Below are positions 15,211 through 64,000 of a DNA stretch of 64,000 nucleotides, in pieces. Source of the stretch: Hormiphora californensis. Its lineage: Eukaryota; Animalia; Ctenophora. Numbering within the stretch: position 1 is the stretch's first letter; each line of letters opens with the position of its first letter. Made by a program: the position numbers and the translations under genes. A model generated the notes under the pieces. The model was not told the DNA's origin. It was given only the letters and a program-made list of their open reading frames with translations, and searched no databases. The stretch spans positions 1,302,001-1,366,000 of the forward strand of contig CM035352.1 of assembly GCA_020137815.1 (NCBI GenBank), given 5' to 3'.

Positions 15211-15816
15211 TATTAATTAATTAATGTGATATTAATTAGTTAATATGGTCCCGGTCGGAAAGTCGGAACACTTTCGAGATATTTTAATGTCTCAAAAACT
15301 GACCAAAATCTCTAAAATTGGTTTTTAAGGTACTTCTACTTATCTCAGGTACATAAAATTTTAGGAGTAGATAAACAAATGTATGAAAACTAATATCTGA
15401 TAAGAAAACAAGAATTATTGCATTATGTGTTCATAATGCTGTGTTTCCCTGCCCTACCGTTTCACGTATCACTGCCAACAGGATCAAGGCTTGGTCATAA
15501 TGTAATGTGAGATGCATACGATCTAGCTGGCGCGGCAGAGCATTTCATGTTTTGTTGAGTGGCGCGCGCACACACGTCCATCGAACTGTGTCAGTGAGGT
15601 GTTTGATGAAGGAGTAGCTCGTCACTGTGCGCGCGGCTCTAGTTGCTACACCGTTGCCCCTCGCAACGAAAGTGTGACCAAAATGGTCCCTCTACCGATT
15701 AGTTAGTATACCAAAATGTCGTTTTCGAATTCTAACCCTGCTATGCCTTTTTACAAAGTAAAAAGGCATCCGGGTGAATGCCTTCGGCATTCACCCGGGC
15801 AGGGAAAAAATACATT

Positions 15817-17337
15817 ACTCAACTGCTGTGGATCATAGGACAATATTTATAAATTTCAACCAGCTGACTTCGTGTTAGCTTTTTCTAGGAATCTTTTTCA
15901 ACAATAATATAGATAATCGTCTTCGTCACCTAGTAAACATTGGTTGAGTCGCTAAATACTCAACCAATGTGGATACACAAACACTTGAACTTCAGACAAC
16001 AAGTAAAGGTCAAAACAAAGTTGAAAGTTTGAAAATATAAGTCTTAGTAAGTAGGAAATTGTCCCAAGTTTTCATATTAGTTAAAACTGGAGCAAAATAA
16101 ACACTCAACTCGTGTGGATAATCAATATAAAGAACCCAATTACGGTTTATTCATCAGAAAATGATCTTTTTGAGATAATATTAGGTCACAGATGGACATG
16201 TGACCTTACAAAACAGTCACACTGATTATCAGATAATTCTACTCAACTGGTGTGGATAAAACCACTACCAAAACCAGCCACACGTCACAATTCTAGCATA
16301 TCCACACGAGTTGAGCGGATTTTGGGTACCAAATTGGGTAAGTTACGTGCACAAGCGTTGGGGCTATCTATTGTAGTAACTTATTTGCTACAAACAGATA
16401 ACTCAACCTCTGTGGATAAGTTTTTCTGACAAAATTTGATTTTTATCCACACTAGTTGAGTCATGTTGGATCCCCTTATTGATAATTAAGACTACTGATC
16501 AAATCCACATCGGTTGAGCAACACTTTTGAGTTCTAAATTCCTATAATTATCCACAATTTGAGTCGTTAGTTGCCACCAAAAGATAGTGAAACTAATGAT
16601 TTAAAGTAGTGATCACAAATATCCACACGAGTTGAGCAGATTTTGAGTATCAAATTGGGTAAGTTACGTGCACAAGCGTTGGAGCTATCAATTGTAGTAA
16701 TTTAATTGGTACAAATAGTAAACTCAACCTCTGTGGATAAGTTTTTCTGGCAAAATCTGATTTTTATCCACACTGGTTGAGTCATGTTGGATCCCCTTAT
16801 TGATAATTAAGACTATTGATTGAATCCACATCGGTTGAGCAACTCTTCTGAGTTCTAATTCCTAGAATTATCCACAATTTGAGTCGTTAGTTGCCAGCAA
16901 AAGATAGTGGAACTAATGATTTAAAGTAGTGATCACAAATAAGCTTATCCACAGCAGTTGAGTCAGTTTTGAGCACCAGTAATTAGTCAAATAGATGCCG
17001 AATCGATTGGCGAACTGATTAAAATCAATCTGAAGCCGAAATAATGTCCCTAATCCTTGGTTGAGTCGCTTTTTTACTAGAAAATGGATAATTATCCACA
17101 TTGGTTTAGCATTTTTTCTTTCTCTGTAGTGTCAAAATAGGTGTAATAAGATGCAGAATTATCCACAAAAGTTTCAGGACCATACCATTTATCCACTTTG
17201 GATGAGCACCGTTATCCACACAAAAATTATCCACACACTTTGAGGCCTTGTAAAGTAAAGCAGAAATGAGCTTTAACGTTCTAGTTTTCATATTCGTAAT
17301 TTAGAGATAATTTCGGGTGGATAACAATACTCAACCA
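15817..17337. repeat. Dispersed array of ~20 bipartite motifs (T)TATCCACA-NNN-GTTGAG in both orientations, including a ~320-bp direct duplication
   Basis: For example ACTCAACTCGTGTGGATAA at 16102, TTATCCACACTAGTTGAG at 16443 and TTATCCACAGCAGTTGAG at 16945; ~16299-16619 is repeated at ~16620-16940. Confidence 0.85.
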
Positions 17338-17782
17338 AGCAAAAGTACTATATTTAGCACAAAACTTTGGTACTACCCGCATCCTCCATATCCTTAAATC
17401 GATAGTGTTTACGCAGTGAATACAGAGCGAATGCAGAGTGAATGCAGAGCGAATGCAGAGTGAATGCAGAGTGAATGCAGAGCGAATGCAGAGTGAATGC
17501 AGAGCGAATGCAGAGTGAATGCAGAGTGAATGCAGAGTGGTTCCAGAGTGAATACGCAGTGAATGCAGAGTGAATACGCAGTGAATACGCAATCATTGGG
17601 GATATCCTACCAGAACTGTTTACGCAGTGAATACAGAGTGAATACGCAGTGAATACAGAGTGAATACGCAGTGAATGCAGAGCGAATACGCAATCATTGG
17701 TAATATCCTACCAGAACTAGAATGCCGTAAATACGCAGTGATAAAAAAATTGGATATTGTTGCTACAACCCGAAAAAAAGTG

Positions 17783-17847
<65 letters not shown>

Positions 17848-17896
17848 ATCTCTATCTCTATCTCTATCTCTCCCTCTATCTCTATACCTAGGTATA

Positions 17897-17940
<44 letters not shown>

Positions 17941-18042
17941 TTGTTAAATAATACGCAGTGATAGACAATATAATAGAGATAGTTTTCAGAAATAAATTAT
18001 GGTTATACACTGTTGGAAATTGAAACAATTACTGCACTGAAT

Positions 18043-18558
18043 TTATTTAAATGTAACTGACAGCTCCTCTCGCTTCAGTCCATACCAGCGTAGTGCATCA
18101 GAAAGAGAGACACCGTTCATAAGCGTTTCAATGAAATCATCTCCCAAATCAGGGCGTCTAGTGGAAGTAGATGGAGAAGTCTGGACAAATTTAGACACAA
18201 CTGCAGGGATAGAAGTAAGAGCTGGAGGAGTAGTCGAGGATGCAGTGGAATGGGTGGGACAGATTCCGCCGACATGTCCCGGCTGTTTGCAGATATTGCA
18301 GCTGATGGCTTGAATCCCCATATCTCTGGTGTTAGGTTTCACTGTCTGACCAAAATCTGAAGGAAGAAGGTCCTCAGGTGTTGTTCTGGTCCTCGGACGT
18401 CCTCTGGTTCTTCGTGGTGGTTGAACTCCAATCTCATGTAGACGAGGATTGTTGGAGGAGAAGTTGGCTCGGCGGGTCATTGCAGCGGCGGTTCGAGTTC
18501 GTTGAATGGTGGTAGATGAGGTAGAAGTAGTAGACGAGGTAGAAGTAGTAGTACTCAT
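18043..18558 (-). CDS. 171-aa intronless cargo ORF with an AT-hook-like motif and a CCHC zinc knuckle
   Basis: ATG-initiated ORF centred between the TIR arms; RRTRGRPRTR; CNICKQPGHVGGIC (C-x2-C-x4-H-x4-C); C-terminal helical segment DDFIETLMNGVSLSDALRWYGLKREEL. Confidence 0.65.
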   Translation of the reverse strand: MSTTTSTSSTTSTSSTTIQRTRTAAAMTRRANFSSNNPRLHEIGVQPPRRTRGRPRTRTTPEDLLPSDFGQTVKPNTRDMGIQAISCNICKQPGHVGGICPTHSTASSTTPPALTSIPAVVSKFVQTSPSTSTRRPDLGDDFIETLMNGVSLSDALRWYGLKREELSVTFK

Positions 18559-18923
18559 AGTGAAAACAATACAATAAAGATCTCACTGCTCGCATTTATC
18601 TATTTTCAGAGATAGTTACATGAACCTATCTATCACGCTATAGCATATAATGTTAGACGAGACCTTGATTGGTCATAATCACGTCGTGATCATATCGCCG
18701 ATTAAAGCAGATCGCATGGCCGATTAAAGCAGATCAGATGACCGATTATGACAGGTCACATCGCCGATTATGACAGATCACAAGGTCGATTATGGAATCA
18801 CATAGTCGATTATGGCAGGTCACAAGGTCGATTATGGAATCACATGGTCGATTATGGCAGGTCACATGGCCGATTATGGTAAGTCACAAGCAAACAGGCA
18901 TGAGGCCGGTAACGCAAACAAAA

Positions 18924-19528
18924 GGGAGAGGGAGATAGAGAGGGAGAGGGAGATAGAGAGAGGGAGATAGAGATAGAGATAGAGATAGAGATAGAGATAG
19001 AGATAGAGATAGAGATAGAGATAGAGATAGAGATAGAGATAGAGATAGAGATAGAGATAGAGATAGAGATAGAGATAGAGATAGAGATAGAGATAGAGAT
19101 AGAGATAGAGATAGAGATAGAGATAGAGATAGAGATAGAGATAGAGATAGAGATAGAGATAGAGATAGAGATAGAGATAGAGATAGAGATAGAGATAGAG
19201 AGGGAGATAGAGAGGGAGATAGAGAGGGAGATAGAGAGGGAGATATAGAGATAGAGATAGATATAGAGAGGGAGATAGAGAGGGAGATAGAGAGGGAGAT
19301 AGAGAGGGAGAGGGAGATAGAGAGAGGGAGATAGAGATAGAGATAGAGATAGAGATAGAGAGGGAGAGGGAGATAGAGAGGGAGAGGGAGATAGAGATAG
19401 AGAGAGGGACATAGAGATAGAGATAGAGATAGAGATAGAGATAGAGATAGAGATAGAGATAGAGAGGGAGATAGAGATAGAGATAGAGAGGGAGAGGGAG
19501 AGGGAGATAGAGAGGGAGAGAGAGAGAG
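18924..19528. repeat. (GAGATA)n/(GAGAGG)n compound microsatellite in the right arm of the Merlin-like element
   Basis: Directly visible; shorter complementary counterpart at ~17784-17935. Confidence 0.95.
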
Positions 19529-20986
19529 ACAAAACCACTTTTTTTTCGGGTTGTAGCAACAATATCCATTTTTTTTATCACTGCGTATTTACATTCTAGT
19601 ATTTACATTCTAGTTCTGGTAGGATATTACCAATGATTGCGTATTCGCTCTGCATTCACTGCGTATTCGCTCTGTATTCACTGCGTATTCACTCTGTATT
19701 CACTGCGTAAACAGTTCTGGTAGGATATCCCCAATGATTGCGTATTCGCTCTGCATTCACTGCGTATTCGCTCTGTATTCACTGCGTATTCACTCTGTAT
19801 TCACTGCGTAAACAGTTCTGGTAGGATATCCCCAATGATTGCGTATTCACTCTGCATTCACTGCGTATTCACTCTGGAACCACTCTGCATTCACTCTGCA
19901 TTCACTCTGCATTCGCTCTGCATTCACTCTGCATTCGCTCTGCATTCACTCTGCATTCACTCTGCATTCGCTCTGCATTCACTCTGCATTCGCTCTGTAT
20001 TCACTGCGTAAACACTATCGATTTAAGGATATGGAGGATGCGGGTAGTACCAAAACTTTGTACATTTAAAAAATTGGTAAAAGTGTTCCGACTTTCCGAC
20101 CGGGTCCATATGTGATATATTTTGACAGAGGATGTGTTTTTTCTTCAATAATATCATGTCATTGTGTATTAATTTTATGTGTGCTATAATTTTACAGAGC
20201 ACTTGTTAGCGTCATGGAATTGAAACTTTAAAACAAGCTGTTATACAGAGAATCAGATCACAGCCATGTACACAATTCAGTTATTGAGAGAATTGATTAA
20301 TTTAATATGAAATTCAGCGATAATTTTATCAAATTAAGATATTGAATTTGAAAATGAAGGTAAATTTAGTTTACTTTTAGAATAAGTTACACTTTCAGTT
20401 TTTGCTCCAAAATTTGAACTTGACACATTTCAATACAGTCTTTTTATATGCACATTGTGATTGTAACTGAATTTAATTCAAACAAATTGCGATTAAAGAG
20501 TATTGTTTTTCGTTATACTGTATTTAGAATTAAACTCCTAAAAGCATTTGTTAAGTAAGGGGTGGGACACCTCACACCACCTCTTACTCAACCTGTATCA
20601 GTATGGCGCCGCCAATCGCCATACCCCAATGCCCCATTTGATTCTCAATGTGCGCATCCTAATTCAAGTTGGACTAGGATCGGAGTTGAATTTGAATGTT
20701 GAAATATTGTATAGCGAGGGATTGTGATGACAGTTGTCCGTACCAGTAATTTACAGGTTCAGAACGCGTTCGAACGGACAATTAATAAAACGGAACGCGC
20801 CTTTAACTAAATTCTCCGACGCTTCTTGCAAGTGCGCGGCGCGCGCGAAAAATAAAGGATATTTTATTTCCTCAAATTCAAGAATTTGCACTTTTTTGGA
20901 TCAAAAACTCCGCCATTTTCGCCGATTAAATTTTCTTGAGCTGTGCTTGGCCAAGGAATGCAAGAGTTATGTCTTATGACTATAAT

Positions 20987-21514: not shown

Positions 21515-26317
<4,803 letters not shown>

Positions 26318-26607: not shown

Positions 26608-26696
26608 GGTGTAGAACAATATCACATTATCACAAGAGAGCGACCGATGTGGCGGCTTTCCGCCCCCTCGGTCATACCACGGACACGCGCTACACC
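26608..26696 (-). promoter_or_regulatory. SECIS element (type II) in the GPx 3' UTR
   Basis: Minus strand: GGTGTAG..ATGAC-CGAGGGGGCG-GAAA-GCCG-ccacat-CGGT-CGCTCTCTTG-TGAT..CTACACC. UGA/GA core, 10-bp helix II including G-U pairs, AAA bulge, apical mini-stem, helix I; ~200 nt after the stop codon. Confidence 0.88.
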
Positions 26697-26896: not shown

Positions 26897-29800
26897 TTAA
26901 AGATCATCGGATGCGGGTTTAGCCAGAAGAGCTTCAATATCAGGAATAAGGACTTCAGGGTTAACGTTGGGAGCCCACCGCTTGTAGGGCACTCCATTTC
27001 GGTCAGAAAGGAACTTGGTGAAATTCCATTTGATTGAATTTGTTAGAAATCCGGGGAGTTTCTCCTTTAACCACTGTGTGGGGGAGAGAGGGGATTAGAA
27101 TCATAAAATCATAGTTCAATTTCAAACAATTGGGGGGGGGGACAAGAATTGCATGGGGTTATTTGTACTCCTTACTCCACAAGTATTACCTTGTAAAGAG
27201 GAATGGCGGTATCTCCGTTCACGTCAATCTTATGGAACATATCGAATGTTACACCGTATTTGCTCTTGGCCCATGCGAAGATCTCCGCATCGGTTCCGGG
27301 CTCCTGGGATAGGGAAACGTTAGAATAGACAGATGACTGAGGACAACACCTGGTTCACCATGGCCAACTCACCTGAAACCCATTTCTCACTCCTTGGAGC
27401 GTGGGAAGAGTTAGCGCGAGGTAGTCTGGGAACGCGCAATGTGGCGGTTGCGCCCTCCACCCACACACAGAGGACCACACACTTTCAAATTCAGACACAT
27501 CATGCATGATGACTGTATTTATTCGAAATAAGGGCAATGTAGATGAAAATATAGCTCATATAAATGTCAAATATTCAGGTCGATATTGCTACTCTCCTTT
27601 CCCCTGAAATTAAACTGGGACTGGCGGTCGGCGGACACTATAATTACAGATTACAGAAGGGACAGCTGCAGTACCTATATTCTATAACCATGTTTACCTT
27701 GGGGCTCAGACCCCTAACTAGTAACTACTGGTACTGGCGGATAGTATAATATAATACCCATGTATTGATTTGATTTGATAAGAGCGGTTGCCATGGGCGT
27801 GAACCCCTGTTGGGGACCCTACGCACAGGGCCAATCACTTAGTGATACCAGCACCGCTAATGATGGCCGTGAGGTATGAGGGGGCGGTAGTTCCCATTTG
27901 TGGGGCCGACAAGAAATGGGAAGGGTTATGGGGGGGAATAACCCTGGTGGGGAAAGGCGACTGCTGCGGGGGAGGTGAGAGGAGGGTTGCAGCAGTCGTC
28001 TTGGGGATGCGCTGCATTGCACGCTTCAATTTCGTTGAAGCTTGTAAAGATAACGAATGATAACATCGCTATTATTATTGATACACCTTAGCAATGGTTG
28101 ATCTAGGTTTTCTAGTGCTTGAAATGTTAATTTATGACTATTTGGTCTGGTAAGCGCTGCCGGAAGTATTAAAAAAAACTGAAAAACTTAATAACGCCAT
28201 TTCTTTAAGCCCTTGCCAGAGCCGAGTTTTAAATTTTTTATTGTTCTATTTTTGGGCTCGTTTTAAAGCTAACACTATCACTAAGGTCTAAAACATTGAT
28301 GCGGTGCAATATCAGTAAACACTAAGATTTGAACGTCAAAACTTCAAATGTGGCACCCAATTTTCTGAGGTGAGATTGCAACTTCGACAGCACTTGCTAT
28401 TTCTGGTGTCAAGGTGGCAATATATCTTCAACTGGAATACATATAAAAACTGTTTTCCAATCGCAAAATTTCCATACTAAATGGTAGCGCATGTTTTATT
28501 TGGTCCTGACTCGTAATTCGGGGGATAATAGCCAAGTGTCAATCATTATGAATCCTTCTAATGTTAAAGTTATTTTGAAGAATATAGCCAAAAAAGTTCT
28601 TAGTTTTGATGTTCTTAGTTTTAGAGTTCCTTAGTTTTTCTACAGTTTAGAGTTCCTTAGTTTTTCTACAGTTTCTTTCATGATTTTCTTGAAGATTATT
28701 ACCGGTTTACTACAGTGCACCGCGGTAATGTGATCCTCGTGACATTTACGTACATACTTGCTGGATATCATAATTTGATTTGCCAGTAGTTGACATGTGA
28801 AACGATGATCTAATTGGTTCTATATTAAACTCTAAAGGATTTGTCCGCTGAAGTTGTACTTGTAAAACCTCCTCAATTAGGGTGGGCGGGGTGGGGCGGC
28901 GGGGCGGGGTGGCGGGTTTTTATGTTTCCCTGAGTGGTATGTGGAGTACACAGAGAAGCGGGAGCATACAATGTGAACTGATCTGTAGACGTGGAAGTAG
29001 AATTATCAGCTGTTTAAAGAAGGAGATACGCAGGGAGTTAGAGAGCACTGAATTAGAGAGAGAATGAGAGAATAGGGGATATTATAGGGAGCTCGGATTT
29101 GCGGGGAGATAGAGAGTACTGAATTAGAGAGAAAATATTATCTGGCGCTTTTATAAAGTATAGTAATTTGTCAGATATCGTCCCATTTCTGGGCAGCATC
29201 CCATTTCTGGGCATCATCCCTTCGCAGGGCATCATCCCTTCGCAGGGCATCATCCCATTTCTGGGCGCCATCCCTTTGCAGGGCATCATCCCATTGCTGG
29301 GCGGATCCTCGGCGTTAGCCTCGGGCGGGGCGATTCTCTCTAGACTGTGAGAGAGGTGTAGTGAGCGGAAAGAAGATGGTTTATATGGGACACACCGCCC
29401 AGGGCTGCTGCTCTGTTTCCCTGAGTGGTATGTGGAGTACACAGAGAAGCGGGAGCATACAATGTGAACTGATCTGTAGACGTGGAAGTAGAATTATCAG
29501 CTGTTTAAAGAAGGAGATACGCAGGGAGTTAGAGAGCACTGAATTAGAGAGAGAATGAGAGAATAGGGGATATTATAGGGAGCTCGGATTTGCGGGGAGA
29601 TAGAGAGTACTGAATTAGAGAGAGAATATTATCTGGCGCTTTTATAAAGTATAGTAATTTGTCAGATATCGTCCCATTTCTGGGCAGCATCCCATTGCTG
29701 GGCATCATCCCTTCGCAGGGCATCATCCCTTCGCAGGGCATCATCCCATTTCTGGGCGCCATCCCTTTGCAGGGCATCATCCCATTGCTGGGCGGATCCT

Positions 29801-32800
29801 CGGCGTTAGCCTCGGGCGGGGCGATTCTCTCTAGACTGTGAGAGAGGTGTAGTGAGCGGAAAGAAGATGGTTTATATGGGACACACCGCCCAGGGCTGCT
29901 GCTCTGTTTCCCTGAGTGGTATGTGGAGTACACAGAGAAGCGGGAGCATACAATGTGAACTGATCTGTAGACGTGGAAGTAGAATTATCAGCTGTTTAAA
30001 GAAGGAGATACGCAGGGAGTTAGAGAGCACTGAATTAGAGAGAGAATGAGAGAATAGGGGATATTATAGGGAGCTCGGATTTGCGGGGAGATAGAGAGTA
30101 CTGAATTAGAGAGAAAATATTATCTGGCGCTTTTATAAAGTATAGTAATTTGTCAGATATCGTCCCATTTCTGGGCAGCATCCCATTGCTGGGCATCATC
30201 CCTTCGCAGGGCATCATCCCTTCGCAGGGCATCATCCCATTTCTGGGCGCCATCCCTTTGCAGGGCATCATCCCATTGCTGGGCGGATCCTCGGCGTTAG
30301 CCTCGGGCGGGGCGATTCTCTCTAGACTGTGAGAGAGGTGTAGTGAGCGGAAAGAAGATGGTTTATATGGGACACACCGCCCAGGGCTGCTGCTCTGTTT
30401 CCCTGAGTGGTATGTGGAGTACACAGAGAAGCGGGAGCATACAATGTGAACTCATGTAATAAGCTTATATAAGTTCAACATTGCTGACCTGGTTTCCGAA
30501 CTGGTTACAGGGAAAAGCAAGAATGCTAAGTCCCTGGTCTGCGTATTTCTCCTCAAGCTGTTGTAGTTGTCGGTAGTTGATATCGGTCAAACCTCAGTTA
30601 GTCGCCACATTGACCACCAAAGTTACGTTGCCCCTGTAGGGGGAGGGGAGGGGTTAGTTGGGATGAAGTGTTAGTCGCCACATTGACCACCAAAGTTACG
30701 TTGCCCCTGGTATTATAGGGGGAGGGAGGGGTTAGTTGGGGTGAAGTGTTAGTCGCCACATTGACCACCAAAGTTACGTTGCCCCTGTGTAGGGGGAGGG
30801 GAGGGGTTAGTTGGGGTGAAGTGTTAGTCGCCACATTGACCACCAAAGTTACGTTGCCCCTGTAGGGGGAGGGGAGGGGTTAGTTGGGATCAGTGGAGAG
30901 GGAGGGGAGGGGTTAGTTGGGGTGAAGTGTTAGTCGCCACATTGACCACCAAAGTTACGTTGCCCCTGTGGAGGGGGAGGGAGGGGTTAGTTGGGGTGAA
31001 GTGTTAGTCGCCACATTGACCACCAAAGTTACGTTGCCCCTGTACGGGGAGGGGAGGGTTTAGTTGGGGTGAAGTGTTAGTCGCCACATTGACCACCAAA
31101 GTTACGTTGCCCCTGTAGGGGAGGGAGGGGTTAGTTGGGGTGAAGTGTTAGTCGCCACATTGACCACCAAAGTTACGTTGCCCCTGTAGGGGGAGGGAGG
31201 GGTTAGTTGGGGTGAAGTGTTAGTCGCCACATTGACCACCAAAGTTACGTTGCCCCTGTAGAGGGTGGGAGGGGTTAGTTGGGGTGAAGTGTTAGTCGCC
31301 ACATTGACCACCAAAGTTACGTTGCCCCTGTACGGGGAGGGAGGGGTTAGTTGGGGTGAAGTGTTAGTCGCCACATTGACCACCAAAGTTACGTTGCCCC
31401 TGTACGGGGAGGGAGGGGTTAGTTGGGGTGAAGTGTTAGTCGCCACATTGACCACCAAAGTTACGTTGCCCCTGTACGGGGAGGGAGGGGTTAGTTGGGG
31501 TGAAGTGTTAGTCGCCACATTGACCACCAAAGTTACGTTGCCCCTGTGTAGGGGAGGGAGGGAGGGGTTAGTTGGGGTGAAGTGTTAGTCGCCACATTGA
31601 CCACCAAAGTTACGTTGCCCCTGCAGGGGGAGGGAGGGGACGGGGTTAGTTGGGGTGAAGTGTTAGTCGCCACATTGACCACCAAAGTTACGTTGCCCCT
31701 GTAGGGGGAGGGAGGGGAGGGGTTAGTTGGGGTGAAGTGTTAGTCGCCACATTGACCACCAAAGTTACGTTGCCCCTGTAGGGGGAGGGAGGGGTTAGTT
31801 GGGGTGAAGTGTTAGTCACCACATTGACCACCAAAGTTACGTTGCCCCTGTGTAGGGGAGGGAGGGGTCAGTTGGGATGAAGTGTTAGTCGCCACATTGA
31901 CCACCAAAGTTACGTTGCCCCTGTACGGGGAGGGAGGGGTTAGTTGGGGTGAAGTGTTAGTCGCCACATTGACCACCAAAGTTACGTTGCCCCTGTAGGG
32001 GGAGGGAGGGGAGGGGTTAGTTGGGGTGAAGTGTTAGTCGCCACATTGACCACCAAAGTTACGTTGCCCCTGTTATAGAGGGAGGGGAGGGGTTAGTTGG
32101 GGTGAAGTGTTAGTCGCCACATTGACCACCAAAGTTACGTTGCCCCTGTACGGGGAGGGAGGGGTTAGTTGGGGTGAAGTGTTAGTCGCCACATTGACCA
32201 CCAAAGTTACGTTGCCCCTGTAGGGGGAGGGAGGGGTTAGTTGGGGTGAAGTGTTAGTCGCCACATTGACCACCAAAGTTACGTTGCCCCTGTGTAGGGG
32301 GAGGGAGGGGTTAGTTGGGGTTAAGTGTTAGTCGCCACATTGACATTTGACCACCAAAGTTACGTTGCCCCTGTAGGGGGAGGGAGGGGAGGGGTTAGTT
32401 GGGGTGAAGTGTTAGTCGCCACATTGACCACCAAAGTTACGTTGCCCCTGTACGGGGAGGGAGGGGGTTAGTTGGGGTGAAGTGTTAGTCGCCACATTGA
32501 CCACCAAAGTTACGTTGCCCCTGTTATAGGGGGAGGGAGGGGTTAGTTGGGGTGAAGTGTTAGTCGCCACATTGACCACTAAAGTTACGTTGCCCCTGTA
32601 GGGGGAGGGAGGGGGTTAGTTGGGATGAAGTGTTAGTCGCCACATTGACCACCAAAGTTACGTTGCCCCTGTAGGGGGAGGGAGGGGGTTAAAAAACCTT
32701 GAGTCTGGTGAAGCTGTGAGTGGTATATTGAGTCGCTTGACACTGGTTCCCGTGCTCCACAATTCAAGTGGTATACTAGGATGAGCGGTAGAGGAGGGAA

Positions 32801-34605
32801 ATCACGGTGCCCCCTAGGGTGTGTCAAGCAGGGTATAAGTAATGGGGCGATGGGTTGTAAATGGGGAGCTAAGAGGGGATTCCTGACAGGAACAGCCCTA
32901 GAGGGTGTGTGAGATGGGCTGTCACTTGCCATCATCTATTCATGGGAAAATAGGGAGGGGGAACTTTTATAAAAACAAGAAATATCTGAAATTTCACCAA
33001 AAACACCAATTTCTAACAACTTACTTGTACTTGGAGAGCTGCTGTTGATTCTCTAGAATATCAACAGCATTGAATTCGTATACCGATGAATACTGAAAGG
33101 GAGATTAGTGTATTGGAATAGTTGTGGACATGGACAATGGAAACACATTCGGGGAGAGCAGTCATTGTGAAAGAACATTCTGAACACATTGAGAGCACGT
33201 GTGCTTTGTAGCATTCTCATTTCTCAAGGATCTGCAGTCAATGAATGAACACATGTTCACTACCTTGCTGAAAAGATGGAACAAAACACTAGATACACAA
33301 CCCATGACACAGTGCAAAAGTAACTGTGGCAACTCTGAACAAATTTACACCAGCTGTGCAGATTTCAAAGAAGATCCCCCCATGTGATGAAAGAGTAATG
33401 GAAGAGAGGGTGAAACACAGGGTTCTCTTCTATAGAGACAATACTAATGACCACATATTTAGCAACCAAACTATCGGCTGGTCAAACACTGTATCCTACG
33501 ATTGATCCGGCTGCAGTTTTATGTTTTAGAGACGGAGACAGTGGTGGCTACTAGGTATTGAGTAAGTAGACTATGAACACGTGCTCAAAAAGCAAGATAA
33601 TTAATTTGAATGGTGGGGCTGCTCAGGGTACATGAAGTCACAGAGGAGCATATCAATTAATCAATCATCATGGCCAACTTACATCGTCGGGATTAAATAT
33701 AGTGGAGGCTGCTACGAGCCACGTCCAAAACGTCTGTGCAGCCATAGTGTCACACAAACGAGAAGTAACGATCTGGTTATAGCAGCTAGTTTTATAGCCC
33801 TCTTATCTTTATCTCTCTCACTCTCTCTCTCTCTCTCTTTTTTCTCTCTCTCTCTCACTCACTCATTATCTCTGTTTGCCGTGAGAAGTCACGCGATTCT
33901 AACCGTCGTCTCACGCCACACAAAGTCACCAGATGTGTTTGGTTGATAACACGTACCAGAGAAGTGCGTCCGAAACAAAAGATTCGCTCTGTGTGTTTTT
34001 TGTGGAAAGGTGTTGTGCTAAGTGCTTCATTTGCTAAACAAAGTCTCCAAGTTCCCGCAAATACAATCACGCCTTTGTTAGGTGAAATTCGATCAAGATT
34101 CAAGGGGAATTGGATTCTTCATAGATCATTTCCATACCTCTCTTTCTCTCTCTCTCTCTAGACTAAACATCTCTCTAGACTAAACATTAAGTACTTTTAG
34201 GCAGCGGCTTTTTTAAACAAACATTTCAGGTGTCAGATACCACGTAGGCGTGTTAAATACAAATAAACACAATGGACACTGGCAGTTTGACGAGCCCACT
34301 CTTGGCTCTTGCCCTGTTTGACAGGGTTTGAACAAAACAATCCCACTCGCATTGTTCGACCCCCTCTCTCCGCGGTACCCCACAACAATATAAAGGATGC
34401 TTAGAACATAACAAAAAGCCCAGAAACGGAAATACCCAGTAACATGCAAGCAGCTGCAGGAACGAACTTTTTTAAGGAGTTGTTTTTTGGACAGTTTTGT
34501 AGCTTCCGTTTCCACTTCAGGAGCAGCGGTCTCTGCCCCGCCCCCACAGGCACCTCCTCCACCCTGGGCCGAGCAGGTCTGTTCCTCTTTCTTTTTGAGG
34601 AACAT
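26897..34605 (-). CDS. GPX4-like: Selenocysteine glutathione peroxidase, GPx4/PHGPx-like; N-terminus may extend further upstream
   Basis: Exons 34605-34468, 33092-33025, 30633-30489, 27303-27190, 27073-26897, with consistent phases. [28 protein letters not shown](TGA 30594-30596)[10 protein letters not shown]..[31 protein letters not shown]; ends PASDDL*. Confidence 0.93.
28923..30452. repeat. 491-bp tandem repeat, ~3.1 near-identical copies, each with an internal 18-bp subrepeat
   Basis: The ORF track recurs at 491-bp spacing (29053/29544/30035); GGCATCATCCC-N7 subunits; lies in a GPx intron. Confidence 0.95.
30597..32690 (-). repeat. Minisatellite of 28 ~72-bp units, each a GPx 3' splice site plus the first 37 nt of the Sec exon
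   Basis: Minus-strand unit ACTTCACCCCAACTAACCCCTCCC(TCCCC)CTACAG|GGGCAACGTAACTTTGGTGGTCAATGTGGCGACTAAC; 28 copies counted by hand; the last copy continues into TGA GGT TTG ACC. Confidence 0.95.
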
Positions 34606-35348: not shown

Positions 35349-36858
35349 TAGTCCAGGCAAAGTTCGATTTAAAATCGGCATTTCTGCAAAAAAGCAAATT
35401 CCGGTTGATTTTGGTCAATTCGAGTACGCTGATTACGACTATAAACTTTTAGTGAACTTTTTCGTTGAGGAAAGTGGCTTAATTGGCCTTAATTGGTCAA
35501 AATTTAAAATGTGTCTAAAATTTATTCTGCATAGCTCAAAAAATCGGAAAAAATTATCGAAAAAATATTTCCAGATTTTATTTGTGTCGAAAATAGGCGG
35601 AATTGGCCTAATTGGGCTTAATTGGGCTTGATTACTGGAATTTAAAGTTTATTCTGCATAGCTCAAAAAATCGGGAGAAATTCACTGATTACCGGAAAAA
35701 TATTTTCAGATTTTATTTGTGTCGAAACTAGGCGGAATTGGCCTAATTGGGCTTAATTGGGCTTGATTACTGGAATTTAAAGTTTATCAAAAATGGATTT
35801 TATATAACTTAAAAAATCGAGAAAAATAAGCTGATTATCAAAAAAATACTCTTTGAATTTATTTTTGTCTCAATTAGACGGTAGAGCTAATTAAAAACCA
35901 ATTAAATCACCCAGTTGGTGTTGCGCAACATAATATGAGCCTCAGGAATGTAAAACTGAACTTAATTAGCCAATTCCTTCACTAATGTGTCCCCAAGGGT
36001 CTCCCCTATCTAGTAGGGTCAGAGGGGTATATTATGAGGCGTGAGAGGTATCTCCAAAATGCCGATTTTTACGATTTTCAGTTTCTCGCCTACAGCTACA
36101 GCACATGCAGTGTGCATGCACAATAGCCCGGAAATGAACATGTTGCACCTCGCACAGAATGTTAGGGTTTTCTATTGTATAAGGGGAGACCCTTAGGGAC
36201 ACATTAGTGAAGGAATTAGCTTATTAAGTTCAGTTTTACATTCCTGAGGCTCATATTATGTTGCGCAACACCAATTGGTTGATTCAATTGGTTTTTAATT
36301 AGCTCTACCGTCTAATTGAGACAAAAATAAATTCAAAGAGTATTTTTCTGATAATCAGCTTATTTTTCTCGATTTTTTAAGCTATATAAAATCCATTTTT
36401 GATAAACTTTAAATTCCAGTAATCAAGCCCAATTAAGCCCAATTAGGCCAATTCCGCCTAGTTTCGACACAAATAAAATCTGAAAATATTTTTCCGATAA
36501 TCAGTGAATTTCTCCCGATTTTTTGAGCTATGCATAATAAACTTTAAATTCCAGTAATCAAGCCCAATTAAGCCCAATTAGGCCAATTCCGCCTATTTTC
36601 GACACAAATAAAATCTGGAAATATTTTTCCGATAATCAGTGAATTTTTTCCGATTTTTTGAGCTATGCAGAATAAATTTTAGACACATTTTAAATTTTGA
36701 CCAATTAAGGCCAATTAAGCCACTTTCCTCAACGAAAAAGTTCACTAAAAGTTTATAGTCGTGATCAGCGTACTCGAATTGACCAAAATCAACCGGAATT
36801 TGCTTTTTTGCAGAAATGCCGAAATTTGGCCTATTTTTTTAGAACTTTTACTGGACTA
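35349..36858. mobile_element. Foldback-type non-autonomous DNA element with ~640-bp inverted arms
   Basis: ~35366-36006 is the near-perfect reverse complement of ~36183-36822; termini TAGTCCAG...CTGGACTA; flanking GTA (or TA) duplication; internal ~130-bp direct repeats. Confidence 0.85.
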
Positions 36859-38272: not shown

Positions 38273-41200
38273 ATGCTGTTGAGGTTGACTCAATTTCGCG
38301 CGTTACATACAGATGCAGCGCGCAATTCAATCTGAAATGAATGACACGAATGAAAATTCTTTTCTGTTTTTTAGACATTGTTTTTCTTCTTTTTAACTTT
38401 CTTTAACTCTTTGAAAAGCGCTGCCTTATCAGTTATCGGGGGCCAGCAACGTTTGCCAATTTAACTATGATCTTTCATCTTGTATTGCTGTTTTTGCCAT
38501 GCACTTCGGCTTCTGCCAGATAGATTTCCTACAATTCAACTTAGAAGCTATAATTTTAAAATTTAAGTCAGCCAACAAATAACAATTGCAGTCCTACATA
38601 ATTTACATTTACTAATTAAATTCTAGGTTCCATGAAGTGCAATGCATGGCCAGGGAACGTACACTAGACGGCTGACTGCCAAAGGAGCAAAATGGGCTGT
38701 CATGGCCACTGCCGGTGTAGGGGGTATGAAACTGGTGAGATGAGTTTGTACAATCAAGTCCATGTTTTCACTTCTTAGGATTATCATGAGCCTAAGAATC
38801 ATACTATGTACCTGAATACCAGTCCTACAGATAGAAACTCAGATAGAAACTAATATAATCTGATATTTTAGGCGAGTAATAAAATCGAGGAAACTCATGC
38901 TGATGTCTCACAACGATTGAGCTTACCATTTGATACAATCGCCGGCGGTGTCAACTCTCTTGGAACCCAACTCAAGATCTATAAAAATAAAGGTAAGCAC
39001 GAATACATGACACTCATTAGTCTCAATGTGAAGTTAATTCTGTTTCTTTAGGACAACGGTTGTACGATGAATTAAAAGTGTCCGATCCTTTCTCAACATC
39101 ATCAGGTAACTGCCCAAATCTGTCAAAAACTCTCTGACTTTGTAACTTTGTACTGCCCAAAATCTGAAAGCACGTTACCACCACCGTCTCTATCAGTGAT
39201 TTTTACCACGTGTGTCTTTGTTTCCCGGTTTCTTGCACATCAGGTTACAGTCTGCTAACTACAGCAGGTCCACCTGGGATACCTCCCTCCTCTGCTCCTG
39301 CTACGACGGGAGAAACAAAGAAAGAACAGAAACCAGAGATTAAAATAACAGAGGTAAACATATGCTATGTTTGAGATGTATAACATAATGTGTCATTGTT
39401 TGGCATACATGTACATGATGTAGAGAAAATCTGAAACCTCTACACGTCACCCACTGATTGGTATGTGAGCTCCCTCCTCTTTCAGATTGTTAAGCCGGTT
39501 GTAAAGGATATACAGGTGGACACATCTGCATTGGAGGAACTGGCTAAGGTAAGCGACAACTCCCCAGTCCCCACCACTTCATAGCTCAAATAATAATTAA
39601 CCGCATCAGTCATGAATCGCTAATAACGGTATGATCGTTTTGTCATGATTAGCATTTTCAAGTAATTTGATAATTTGAACTGTTTGTTTCCCTGTTAGAA
39701 AGAGGAGGAGAAAGAGGAATTGCAAAGAAGGGAAGCAGAGCGACAAGCAGCTGCGGAACAGGAGGCAGCTTTGGCAGCGAAGCAAGCAGAGCGGGAGGCA
39801 GAATTGGCGGCTGCAGCGAGGCAAGCAGAGCGGGAGGTAGAATTGGCGGCTGCAGCGAGGCAAGCAGAGCGGGAGGCAAAAGAAGCAGCGGAGGCTGCAG
39901 CTGCAGAACAGGCTGAACAAAGAGCACAGATTGAGGAGGAGAATAGAAAGCTGAAGGAAGAACTCAACACCGCTGAGTCCGTGAGTAGTACCCCGTCTTG
40001 TGTGATTAGGGTATGATTGATCGGACGGTGTGTGTGACGTGTGTGTGTGACGTGTGTGATCGGGCGATGTGTGTGAAATGTGTGAGTGCTACGATCTGAA
40101 CTCTCTTGCTGACACACTCTTTCCTGTCGTGGCCATTAGGTCCGGATCGCTAAGGAAGAACTTGAAGCCGCAAATGAAGCATTGAAAACATCGCTAATGT
40201 CATTGAAAGCCGTAAGCACCTCTAGTAACCATGGTAACATTGTTCTGTTACCATGGTAACGCTTTACTTTTACCATAGTAACGCTACGTTTTTTACTGTT
40301 TACCACGTTATTATGTGTTTCAGGAATCTCACAAAACAGAAACAGAACTGAGGAAAGAACTGTTGAAGCTGCAGGAAAATTACAAGCGAGAGTTGGACAG
40401 GATCAGGGGTGAGAACGATAAACTAAAGTATCTGGTGAAGAATTCAACTGTCAAAACCACCACTGTCAAGGTATTATACCAAGGAGTATTTAACTGTAAT
40501 ACTGAGTAACAAAGTGAGGTCACCACTTTGTATGAATCATGTCCACTGTTCAGATTTGTGAACAGTTCTATGAACTGCTCACTGAAAGTTACTTACACAC
40601 TATCGAGCTAGGTTCTCTTCATTGCTAATTGCTGCTCAACTGTTGTTATGGTAGCAATTATATTGTTCAAGTATATTGCTATCTATAGCGAACAGAGAGG
40701 CTAATTGTTTGCTGCAGTAGTAGTACACTCCATGAAGTGGAGAGCAATTATGTTTACCAAGAGTGTAACCAGCCATGAACTGACTTCTAACTCCTCCCCC
40801 TAGAAATCTATAATTGACATATAACTCCTCCCCCTAGAAATCTATAATTCACATCTAACTCCTCCCCCTAGAAATCTATAATTGACATGTATGCGGATGT
40901 TCTAGACACCTTGTCGGATAACGACAACTCGTACAGCGTCCACGACCACCTCCCTCGGATCGTGGTGGTAGGAGATCAGAGCGCTGGAAAAACGAGTGTT
41001 CTAGAAATGGTCGTCAGGGCACGTATCTTCCCCAGGTACATCTTGTTTCATAGAGAGTGATGCGAGAACAAAATTTGAACTTGTTATGTAGGGGGCATAA
41101 AATGTCCAGCACTCTCCCGTGCTACAATATCTACTACTAACAGCTCTGTACTAACAGATCTCTAATTAATTACCCAGGGGACATGGTGAGATGATGACCA

Positions 41201-44200
41201 GATCACCAGTACAGGTGACATTGGGAGAAGGGAACCGACATACCGCACAGTTTAATGATTCAGACCGGGTCTACGATCTATCTTCAGAGAGTGAGGTGAG
41301 ACACCACTTTTTTTCAATTTTTCACTTGTTTCAATGTCTCTTTGAAATGCGACACATATTACATACATTTTCTATTTCTCCCTGGGAGGGAATCAAAGGG
41401 GCATGTCGATTTACAACAACTCATTTCACCCTCCTAGTTGGTTCAACTGCGTAGTGAAGTGGAGGGTCGGATGAAGGCCGCAGTAAAGGGAGGTGAAACG
41501 ATTTCAGCGGAGACAATCTCAATGACAGTCAAGGGACCTGGTCTGCATCGAATGGTGCTGGTAGACCTACCTGGAATTATTAGCGTAAGTGGAAATTATA
41601 CTTCCCAACATTCCAACTACTTACTGCAACTAGACAATCTCTATCTTGTCCAGCCAATTCTTCACTTACAACTCGATGTGTGTGGTTATCAATTCTCTTT
41701 ATAATTCTCTCCAGACGGAGACGGCAGGAATGAGACCTCGGACCAAGGAAGCCCTCCATGAGATGTGCAGCAGTTTTATGAGGAATCCTAATGCTATAAT
41801 ACTGTGTGTACAAGATGGAAGTATAGATGCAGAGAGGAGTAACATCACCAACCTAGTTCAGGTTGGTGGGTTCCTAATATATGATATATGGGGACATATC
41901 TCTTATCATATTTCTCACTTCAAGATGAGACAAGTTTCGAAAAAGATGTACTTCTATCTAGGGGCATTTTCATAACGACCCCCCTCCCCTAGGCTCACGA
42001 CCCCAAGGGAAAAAGGACGATATTCGTATTGACTAAGGTGGACCTAGCTGAGAAGAATATGGCCAACCCAACCCGAGTTAAAAAGATTCTGGAGGGGAAG
42101 TTGTTTCCTATGAAGGCGCTGGGATATTTTGCTGTTGTAACTGGACGGGGACCAAATGAGGATAGTATTGATACTATCAGAGCATACGAAGAGGACTTTT
42201 TCAGCCGATCTAAACTGTTCAGGTAAGTTATTAGTGATGGCAGTGAAATGTGATCAAATCTAAAGAGGTACATCCACTACTAAAGAAGAGAGAGAAAAGA
42301 AGACTGAGAAAGGAAGTTGAAGTATTGTACAAACTGTAACAAAGATGCCCTAAAGCATCATTATGTAATTGTGTATGTACATTGTACACGCTAGCTCTTA
42401 TTCTCTTTTTCTCTTGCATACAATAACAATACAAAAGTTCACAATTTGCACGGTATATCCTCCCCTCTCCCCGTTTAGATCCGGAGCTATGCGGGCTAGT
42501 CAGATGTCTACAAACAACCTCTCTCTCGCTGTTTCCGATTGTTTCTGGAAGATGGTTAGTGACTCGGTGGAACAGCAGTCCGACGTTTTTAAAGCCACCC
42601 GTTACAACTTGGAGGCAGAATGGCGAAACACTTTCCCCGGCATTCGAGAAATGGATAGGGTATGTTTTATTTACAGAGTGTTCGCATGTATCGTGGGTGG
42701 GTGTGTATATTTTTTGGAGTACCCTGCACTGCATGCAGTGACACATCTTGTCAGCCTGCGATTCAACAACTCAGAACTCGGTGTGCACATCAATTTTATA
42801 GGTTGGGAAAGTTAACGTAGGCCGCGAGGTCACGCCTTCAACATTACTCGCGCGATAAATCTTGGTAATTGCGCGCGCAAGCAGTTCAAGTACCCGACCA
42901 ACCGCTTCGACAGAGCTGATGAATGCAGCTGATGAGTCGGGATGTTTCTCTTCCGTATGTACTGTGTATCTGGTGGTAACACACGCCCTTCTCCCTTTCT
43001 CTCATACCACTCTCTAAATTACGTCACTAGAAGTTTACAACTGTGTATACAGTGTACTGATAATTATAAAGTTCGGGAGAGTCGGGACTCCTTTTGTTGA
43101 TACAATGGTCCCAATTTGCCATCTATTGTTCATGATTTATGGACATGCAAATAAATCAAGAAATCCGGATGTACTTTCTAAATTTGGAACTCTCCACGGA
43201 TACGTGCTGCGTGTATGATTTAAGAAAATTAACTTATACCTGTGTTGTTGAGACCCCTCTAACACACCACCTTTCTTCAGAACGATCTCTTCGAGAAAGC
43301 TAAAGATGAGATTCTGGACAAGATAGCAGCCCTACACAAGCTAACCCCCCTAGAATGGGAGACATTGATCCAGGAAGCACTATGGAGTGGGATCCAACAC
43401 AAGGTTGTAGATGAGATATATCTGGAGGCGGCTGAGTGTCATTCTGTATCTCACTTTAACACCAAGGTAAGGGTGGAAACTATCCCTTTTTATTTTCCAC
43501 ATTTGTATTTCATACGGGAGGGGGGGGGGGCAAACAAAAAAACATAGAGATAGGGAGTACCCCTTTTCAAGATCACTGTAATCATCACATAACACGTGTT
43601 CTAGGTCGACATAGCGCTGAAGGACTGGACAGATGATACTCTCCCCCGGATTTCAGTAGACGTTGGATGGCAGACACTATTCTCCCAGCTGACCAGTATC
43701 TTAATGAGCAAAAACAGTGAGGGTCGGGAATTCGGGGACCTGTTTCACCCTCTTAAACAGAACATTTTGGAGACAGTGAAGGAGCAGCACCACTGGCAGT
43801 ACAATGCCCTAGCTCGTCTGGTTAGTCGACCATCCCAGTATTATCAGGCCTCATCCCTGATCCCAGTCCCTTCTCTTCAGAAGAACACAAACACCACGGC
43901 TCTAACCCCATCCCTCTCTCACTGCCCTAACTATAACCCCTCCCTTTTTTAATATAACCCTCTCCCTACATATATCCCTCTACCCAGAGTGTGATCCAAA
44001 AGAACGCATTGGAGGACACGGCGGTAACTAACAAGATGCAGTGGGACAATTCTATCCTCTTTATGGAGAGGATTCTGAAGGAGAGGATAGACCTTGCTCA
44101 GGAGGATCTGGAGCAGTGTATTGGACCGGGATGGAGGGAACGGTGGACAGGGTGGAGAAGCAGGTTAGTCACACTTGTTATATGGGGCACGGAGACAGAG

Positions 44201-45388
44201 GGTCGAATGAGGCAACTAGCAGGGATAGTAGAATCAACCGTTGTTAGGTCTGGGGTACCCTTGGTCTTGTCTAACACAGTTCCAATGTTCAGGTCACCCC
44301 TGGAGGTGCAGTGTGTTGCAGCCAAGAACGAGTTACAGAAGTTGCTCCTGGCAGATGACCAACACGGGAAACACTTGGAAAATGATGAACTAACGACCGT
44401 CAGGAGAAACCTCCAGACTCAGGGCGTTGATGTACCGTATGAGAGTGTGAGTTGCATTTCAGAATGTTGTAACCATACTACAGTGGTTACCATAGAGACG
44501 TCTGTCCTACAACAAGCAACCTTGAAAACTGTCATTTCTCTAACTAAACCAAGTTTTATCTTTAGATTTGTAAAGTGTGGGAAAAGTTGTACAAGTTGAC
44601 CTTTCTAAACAGGGCGCTGACAAGCGCTCAGCAGTGCAGGAAAGCATTCTATCATCGCAACATAGGTAACACAGCTTAGGTCAATTAAATCAATCACACT
44701 CTGAATTGTGGGCGAATAAAAGTTTCACGTCAGATTCACTAGTAATCACTCAACAAGCTGTCTCCATCCCCCCCCCATACAGCGTGTAATGCAGTTGAGT
44801 GCAATGATGTGGTGCTCTTCTGGAGAGCCAACAAAATGCTGGAGATGACATCCAACGCTCTTCGCCTACAGATAATGAATACTGAAGGTAAGAAACGGAA
44901 ACGTCAAGCACCTTGCTGCTTTCTACCGTTCCTCAGTACTTTTTGATTTATGAGTTATAACCATAGCAAACAATGGTATCCCTGGCATTTAACCCCTCCT
45001 ACTCCCCTGCAGCACAACGTCTTGAGAAGGAGGTAAAGCAATATTTAGAGGACCTCTCCCACGACGAGGATAAGAAGAAGAGCCTGATAAAAGGAAAGAG
45101 GGTTGAACTAGCTGAAGAACTCCGTAAGTCAACCAATTGTACAGCTGTCGGTTGATGGAGCTTCAAGGCGTTATGACAAATAACGGGACCTGTACCCTCC
45201 TAGAGTTCATTTGTCTAGACGAGTTGTTCTAGTTCTACCATGCACCCTTCCCACTCCCACCCCCCCCCCCCCACGTGATCTAAATGTTATCCTAAAACAT
45301 GTTACTCTCCCTCTAAACAGGAAAGGTCCGGGGAATTCAAGACAAACTAGATGCGTTCATTGAGGAACTGAAGAAGGATCATCAGTAG
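38273..45388 (+). CDS. OPA1: Dynamin-like mitochondrial inner-membrane fusion GTPase OPA1 (5' exons less certain)
   Basis: Presequence-like [12 protein letters not shown]; [53 protein letters not shown]; [11 protein letters not shown]; [19 protein letters not shown]; TKVDLAE; [14 protein letters not shown]; [10 protein letters not shown]; ends [21 protein letters not shown]. More than 25 GT-AG exons. Confidence 0.95.
40787..40888 (+). repeat. Triplicated 34-bp unit: OPA1 splice acceptor plus first 17 nt of the exon
   Basis: TAACTCCTCCCCCTAG|AAATCTATAATT(G/C)ACAT x3; AGs end at 40803, 40837 and 40871; only the third continues as [10 protein letters not shown]. Confidence 0.92.
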
Positions 45389-46261
45389 ATTGTGTGACGT
45401 CACATGATGATAACCCCCCCCCCCCCCCCCCCCCATTGTGTTGAGAAAAGGAACCGTTGTGCCATATAAACTGAGTTTATAAAACTCCTATAAAGTATAA
45501 AACGGTTGAAAATTATTAGTTTTGACACGTTATTCTTTTTGCTATGCTGTGGACCAATTGCGTTAACGTGACTATCTAACTTAAGGTGTTTGGTATGAAA
45601 AGTATATTTGATTTGTGAAGATAAGACCTAAGTTAATGAACTATAATTTACAATTGAAGCCAATATAATCGATCTAGTCTACTGTAGACTCTACATGTGC
45701 AAGCTTATAATTAGTGACTCGTTATGCACTGTCATTTGAGCTCCTCCGGTATATATTTTTGTAATGTTTTGAGTTTGAGAGAGCCGTTTTATACATTTTG
45801 AAAATTAATTGTCATTTCTTCTTTTCTAAATCGCTGAAACTAGCCGCCCAATCAAACGCGCGAAAATTTAGAGAATAAACTGCAAGTTATGGCACGCGCT
45901 TTGTATTGACCAACGCGCCGCGCACGAGTAATCCAATCTAAAAAAAGTTTATTTCGCAGCTTTATACTTTTTTGTGCCATTTTTTTCAAATTTAAAATTT
46001 TGACTTTAAGTTTTGACCGTTCTAAAGGATCTCCTGACCGTTGTTGACGCTCCCTCTCTTATCTACCAAAATTGCCAATTGGCCTCCATACTTCCATATT
46101 TTAAAGGTCGGAATTCTCAAACTGTTCGCCCACCCTTGGGCCTTGACCCCTTGCCTTACCCCATGTGAATTGTCCGATTTATATTTTTGCGTGTCGAAAC
46201 TTCGATTTAAACATAAATCACCTTGTTAGCAAGAAGCCATGTAGTTAATCGACCCTGTGTT

Positions 46262-64000
<17,739 letters not shown>

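Follow-up and report, generated by a model that had tools for sequence, protein, structure and literature searches.

The window, the whole 64-kb stretch of Hormiphora californensis DNA analysed here, contains six intron-rich genes, which encode a PITPNM/Nir2-type protein, an AGPAT-like acyltransferase, a selenocysteine GPx, OPA1, an FH2 formin, and a papain-family protease. The gene models were built by hand and checked for open frames, and were supported by Pfam or, for OPA1, by a PDB match; the labels AGPAT and cathepsin L, which are more specific than the Pfam hits, denote what we take these proteins to be. The models omit the initial exons of OPA1, the final ones of PITPNM and cathepsin, and perhaps one exon of the formin; they supply 64 complete introns (median length, 224 nt), 67 acceptors, and 67 donors. 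When the last AG is used, the six models are open, except for an apparent one-base frameshift in formin exon 1 (~46555, plus strand), which reflects either an assembly error or a broken allele.

The papain-family protease is nested in a formin intron (48345–54419, minus strand) and carries cysteine-rich C-terminal repeats, presumably ShKT-like, and a rhodopsin-family GPCR fragment is nested in a PITPNM intron (1625–2059, minus strand). The four long coding tandem repeats of the modelled exons (39774–39878, 60317–60432, 60745–60815, and 61082–61461) all have periods that are multiples of three (39, 33, 36, and 21), which shows the selective filter on duplications. Putative elements bounded by long terminal inverted repeats, some of them nested and with internal minisatellites, were recognized by eye at ~15250–20110, 35370–36820, 57260–59575, and 4010–4880; they are likely to be non-autonomous DNA transposons.

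In three of the genes, GPx, OPA1, and the formin, a tandem array spans an acceptor (Table 1). For GPx, 28 copies of the start of exon 3 were found between 32668 and 30633, and CAG precedes all 28, although the bases immediately 5′ of it vary. Each decoy unit consists of ~35 nt of intron end and 37 nt of exon start, and the intact exon comes after the last copy. The preliminary description had given this array as 28 copies of ~72 bp; the copy number and a 72-nt core were confirmed, whereas the 27 upstream units range from 71 to 106 nt. The core is a multiple of three and has no stops in the exon frame. The 27 units comprise 20 distinct sequences, with an identical exon part in 24, and the variation is concentrated in the C-tract. 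Non-homopolymer variants recur, the ending GTACAG seven times and TACACAG four times. In total, the array occupies 2035 of the 2391 nt of intron 2.

Other features of the GPx gene were also noted. In intron 3, a 491-bp unit is repeated 3.1 times with 99% identity (28923–30452), beginning 36 nt past the donor, so that both introns flanking exon 3 are inflated by tandem arrays. The translation of an alternative first exon (34605–34460, minus strand) matches the N-terminus of protein P0124, and an exon at 33745–33683 resembles the N-terminus of P0001. The 3′ UTR contains a SECIS-like hairpin (26619–26686, minus strand; fold z −1.7) that scored 22.3 bits against Rfam SECIS_1 (E 0.089), below the gathering score of 35, and fits a live selenoprotein gene.

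For OPA1, three AGs end at 40803, 40837, and 40871, and the true acceptor is 40871|40872; the exon after the last AG aligns to human OPA1 residues 262–315 from its first residue (E 3e-21). The three copies are distinguished by substitutions, and the array accounts for 68 of the 401 nt of its intron. Three further short duplications of 12–14 bp (38828–38851, 41135–41161, and 41686–41710, plus strand) end 4–20 nt 5′ of OPA1 acceptors, and one of them repeats a branch-point-like word with AG.

For the formin, at least seven AGs were found from 63767 to 64000; the array reaches the window end and the intact exon lies beyond it. The copied exon start reads VSL(D), and VSL occurs at exactly the matching point in five of seven homologous formins; a sixth has VSL three residues later, and DAAM1 has VNM. 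This agreement indicates the same architecture as in GPx and OPA1, although the intact formin exon is outside the window. The homologs were retrieved with an alignment as query (102 hits), after a search with a single formin exon had yielded 139 candidates and no hits.

Table 1. Tandem arrays, duplications, and adjoining exons in the window
Feature	Position	Strand	Remarks
AGPAT branch-point-region duplication	25259..25332	+	2 x 36 bp, AG not included
Intact GPx exon 3	30489..30633	-	In-frame TGA (Sec) codon immediately after the duplicated 37 nt, where the copied exon part ends
GPx intron 2/exon 3 acceptor array	30597..32687	-	True acceptor at 30633, preceded by 27 decoy units
GPx exon 2, upstream partner exon	33025..33092	-	Joined to exon 3 in P0124
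OPA1 acceptor triplication	40781..40888	+	Unit of 34 nt, with 17 nt from the intron end and 17 nt from the exon start
C-run and CCCTAG array	51448..51649	-	28-32 nt, ~6.5 copies; mid cathepsin L intron, no annotated splice site
Formin FH2 exon 5′ of the array	63492..63620	+	Donor position conserved in two relatives
Formin (FH2) acceptor array	63759..64000	+	Unit of 38 nt, with 29 nt from the intron end and 9 nt from the exon start; one copy of 43 nt

These results bear out the architecture that the preliminary description had reported in the three genes, with 28 acceptor copies in GPx, three in OPA1, and at least seven in the formin, as well as its placing of the intact exon after the last copy in GPx and OPA1. 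The related duplication that it had described in AGPAT, as 39 bp of a branch-point region without the AG, does stop 9 nt before the AG, and its length is 36 bp.

Each of the three arrays far exceeds chance as a repeat. As previously stated, their units share no long identity: the longest word common to units of different arrays is 10 nt, and no 16-mer from the GPx, OPA1, or formin arrays occurs elsewhere in the 64-kb window. These results indicate three independent local duplications and, within the window, rule out a shared mobile element or introner unit. The units are bordered by short words that resemble one another, such as slippage would exploit: TGAC.T in OPA1, and in GPx ACTAAC, which is found in both the branch-point region and the exon. 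In the three arrays, the 5′-most acceptors have only 14, 18, and 9 exact upstream nucleotides in common with later copies, so that the first event can be reconstructed only in part. The recurrent unit variants together with the divergent 5′-most acceptors correspond to concerted evolution with divergent edge copies, as judged from these two features rather than from a tree.

Use of any of the 27 upstream AGs in GPx, or of either upstream AG in OPA1, leads to a premature stop, indicating that a functional protein requires the last AG. The only transcript-level evidence on AG choice among the three genes is P0124, which was called on a 983-nt contig and whose source is therefore presumably a spliced transcript. 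Its alignment to the GPx model is ungapped, spans the exon 2–exon 3 junction, and has 163 identical residues among 167; the protein contains the exon start once. Because it differs from the model at four residues, its source allele (or sister species) may lack the array. The premature stops and the single exon start in P0124 accord with the earlier proposal that the arrays are tolerated through use of the last AG. A further protein, P0123, matches the GPx model at 130 of 130 residues. It is clustered at 90% with a gene model of P. bachei, which itself matches at 118 of 118 aligned residues; a Pleurobrachia-like ctenophore is thus the likely source. In a metagenome scan with P0124 (27 of 64 parts, at least 80 loci), no ctenophore genomic contig was among the loci listed; these include two transcripts, L001 and L002 (72–73%), in which the exon start is single.

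Duplicated beta-globin 3′ splice-site substrates were reportedly the subject of work by Reed and Maniatis in 1986. According to the parts of later work that deal with such substrates, when the proximal exon is truncated, splicing occurs predominantly or exclusively at the distal site (PMC1450099, PMC5389562), which is favoured 6:1 to 25:1 (PMC1450099). The arrays described here are alike in that a proximal acceptor followed by a truncated exon would lose to a distal one with a full exon (PMC1450099, PMC5389562), whereas the beta-globin substrates are artificial, two-site, and spliced in mammalian extracts, and the introns here are short and from a ctenophore. By analogy, the distal-acceptor rule may carry over to ctenophores.

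Amphioxus mirages were reportedly the subject of a 2002 study by Canestro et al., to which later papers refer. As characterized in portions of those papers, mirages are minisatellite-like duplications of intron–exon borders, at either border, that leave splicing undisturbed; they occur in Adh3, the globins BflGb6 and BflGb9, troponin C, and PGBD5, differ in length from one haplotype to another, and show divergence of their edge copies, and a model of intron gain through them had already been put forward (PMC3087553, PMC3902484). The GPx, OPA1, and formin arrays likewise consist of a minisatellite-sized tandem unit spanning an intron–exon border, and in GPx and OPA1 the extra copies are intronic, with splice signals, and the authentic exon is intact. 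The combination of intron 3′ end and exon start resembles that of the BflGb6 mirage (PMC3087553, PMC3902484), the unit sizes overlap those of the Adh3 mirage (10–72 bp), and the edge copies diverge as in amphioxus. Unlike the amphioxus cases, the host is a ctenophore, the GPx array has 28 copies as compared to the 2–7 quoted for the globins and PGBD5, and all cases in the window are of the acceptor type, whereas amphioxus mirages occur at both borders.

Comparable human repeats are described in the literature passages considered. In CBS c.844_845ins68, intron 7's last 52 nt, together with the first 16 nt of exon 8, are duplicated, and the downstream acceptor is used while the upstream copy is spliced out, as predicted here (PMC7490669); that human polymorphism has two copies only, as compared to up to 28 in the present arrays. 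In intron 7 of F7 (IVS7), a 37-bp VNTR spans a splice site and contains silent pseudo-sites (PMC1557585), representing the donor-side mirror image of the acceptor arrays. Internal tandem repeats at exon–intron borders were also surveyed on a genome scale in human segmental duplications, where, unlike in GPx, OPA1, and the formin, they form new introns (PMC2812944). The preliminary description knew of no account of the architecture, but amphioxus mirages and CBS 844ins68 had already been published. The portion of the H. californensis genome account considered reports high indel heterozygosity in non-coding DNA and makes no mention of acceptor arrays (PMC8527503), and a literature search of limited scope found neither a ctenophore mirage report nor a genome-wide count of arrays at acceptors versus donors. 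The arrays are therefore of a known repeat kind, of which they are likely the first ctenophore examples. They extend the mirage kind to a ctenophore, and the 28 nearly identical sites of GPx provide a clean natural test of how an acceptor is chosen.

Taken together, the three arrays are probably mirage minisatellites that originated by local duplication and are tolerated through continued splicing at the copy that carries the full exon. A stretch of 34–72 nt would have been duplicated when slippage or repair joined short words that resemble each other and flank the acceptor, and the units would then have been expanded and homogenized by unequal exchange or slippage, perhaps most strongly where the unit contains an unstable C/G-rich tract, as in GPx with its 28 copies. 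By sequence logic, and for GPx by the protein of a near-identical allele, an intact product would be obtained only through the last AG. The upstream AGs would lose because only 9–37 nt of exon follows them, without enhancers or a downstream donor, as the in vitro behaviour of duplicated beta-globin acceptors suggests, and leaky use of them would be cleared by nonsense-mediated decay. The net effect is a longer intron. As splicing likely takes place at the last copy, the arrays probably do no harm.

Two other accounts of the arrays were weighed, and both are very improbable. One is that the arrays were created or inflated by the assembler or by read error. The assembly is locally poor, with 47 homopolymer runs in 55001–56000 against a median of 5 per kb, and the formin frameshift could have the same cause; however, the recurrence of non-homopolymer variants among the GPx units, 20 of 27 being distinct, would not result from random read error or a collapsed loop and makes an artefact unlikely for GPx, the OPA1 copies differ by substitutions, and the same architecture in lancelet PGBD5 was, in the portion of that report considered, confirmed by resequencing (PMC3902484). 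The other, which we regard as just as remote, is that the decoy acceptors are functional, tuning expression by unproductive splicing or serving as steps in recursive splicing. The retention of CAG in all 28 GPx copies could be read in this way, but is also expected under recent homogenization; the divisibility of the stop-free 72-nt core by three, and the formin junction, which reads AG|GT and scores above 6 of the 67 real donors, could be read likewise. However, every GPx route via an upstream AG runs into a stop, and the units are mutually unrelated and described as species-private. Recursive splicing is typical of introns of great length, whereas the introns here are short. Use of an in-frame micro-exon in GPx was rejected; none of the GTs inside the unit would bring back the reading frame.

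The reading of the arrays as tolerated local duplications leaves the question of their position. For the counts, 131 TRF rows were merged into arrays, each array was collapsed to one unit, and the units were placed randomly among tolerated positions. Arrays span 3 of the 67 acceptors and none of the 67 donors, and 45 of the 48 non-simple, non-coding arrays in the window span no annotated splice site. For all 48 arrays, 1.67 acceptor hits were expected versus the 3 observed (P 0.23), and for the 22 with a period of at least 20, 1.31 (P 0.14). When the transposon-internal and garbled arrays were removed by eye, 16 remained, with 0.71 expected (P 0.031), and for the 7 with a period of at least 20 and at least 3 copies, 0.38 were expected (P 0.004). 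With the null confined to gene bodies, P was 0.008–0.18, and across the 12 combinations of subset and null it was 0.004–0.23. The small P values arise because the subsets were chosen post hoc, in a window flagged for its three cases. The absence of donor hits was unremarkable in every subset (P 0.17–0.65), and the acceptor:donor ratio of 3:0 gave P 0.125. Counting arrays that span a site or lie within 25 nt of it, the ratio was 7:2 (P 0.09), and within introns 6 near-site arrays were found versus 3.96 expected (P 0.18). Decayed junction copies were sought in the 64 complete introns, where the background maximum was 11 of 16 matches at both site types; only those of GPx and OPA1 were found, and no donor-spanning copy.

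A mutational bias toward acceptors, in which C-rich polypyrimidine tracts (G-rich template) stall replication or invite slippage so that duplications favour 3′ splice sites genome-wide, is nevertheless conceivable, though we consider it unlikely. In its favour are the acceptor:donor ratios, the narrowed subsets, and the lack of donor-spanning copies, decayed ones included, in the 64 introns. In addition, C-runs of at least 5 occur at 13 of 66 acceptors versus 41 of 835 interior tiles, making acceptors ~4 times richer and a mild by-product bias plausible, and the variation among GPx units sits in the C-tract while the exon part is nearly constant. The GPx unit has the canonical G4 pattern, on the template strand, and its array holds 28 of the 51 such matches in the window; no canonical G4 motif is present in the units of OPA1 or the formin. 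The R-loops suggested in the preliminary description fit poorly, because R-loops prefer G-rich RNA and the RNA strand here is the C-rich one.

Against this bias stand the unfiltered and near-site P values, the selection of the window for its three cases, and, as far as the sources considered go, the amphioxus mirages at both borders (PMC3087553) and the human donor VNTR in F7 (PMC1557585). The C-run array located midway along a cathepsin L intron further indicates that such tracts expand away from splice sites, so that composition may explain some of the excess without a link to splicing. It was weighed as a possible fourth mirage and discarded, since the frame is not kept by the 50-nt AG...GT candidate exon that follows it, and the model lacking that exon gives an open protein; a one-base error in the C-run of the array is possible.

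Overall, three cases are too few to demonstrate special targeting of acceptors, and the data allow a mild acceptor excess without demonstrating one. The mutational process aimed at acceptors that had been suggested earlier is accordingly not shown: the count is 3/67 versus 0/67, the least selected test gives P 0.23, and P falls below 0.05 only in narrowed subsets. Any excess is probably mild and a side effect of the abundance of C at intron ends in this genome. It is rather improbable that several percent of introns in this ctenophore lineage bear acceptor mirages, with a true excess over donors driven by C-rich intron ends. If true, the composition of the splice signal would itself be a genome-wide mutational hotspot and a main way in which introns grow, and an early-branching animal with short introns would offer natural reporters, in the hundreds, of a strict rule that the last acceptor is used. 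A demonstrated genome-wide excess would tie splice-signal composition to mutation bias and to the evolution of intron length.

With regard to introns themselves, elongation is plain, as shown by the share of GPx intron 2 taken up by the array, whereas intron gain, which had been suggested along with it, is unsupported. Under the Rogers model, an exonic AG|GT proto-splice site would give rise to a new, frame-preserving intron, and no such site was found in the three arrays: the OPA1 unit contains no GT, the best internal GT of the GPx unit, although it outscores 10 of the 67 real donors, would produce a micro-exon of 7 nt and does not restore the frame, and the AG|GT of the formin is the old acceptor itself.

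A garbled, homopolymer-rich stretch (runs of 5 or more) at 54760–56000 is likely unpolished sequence. Acceptor-spanning arrays such as that of GPx can mislead gene predictors; the P. bachei model P0121 begins out of frame in GPx exon 3, which the Sec codon alone could explain.
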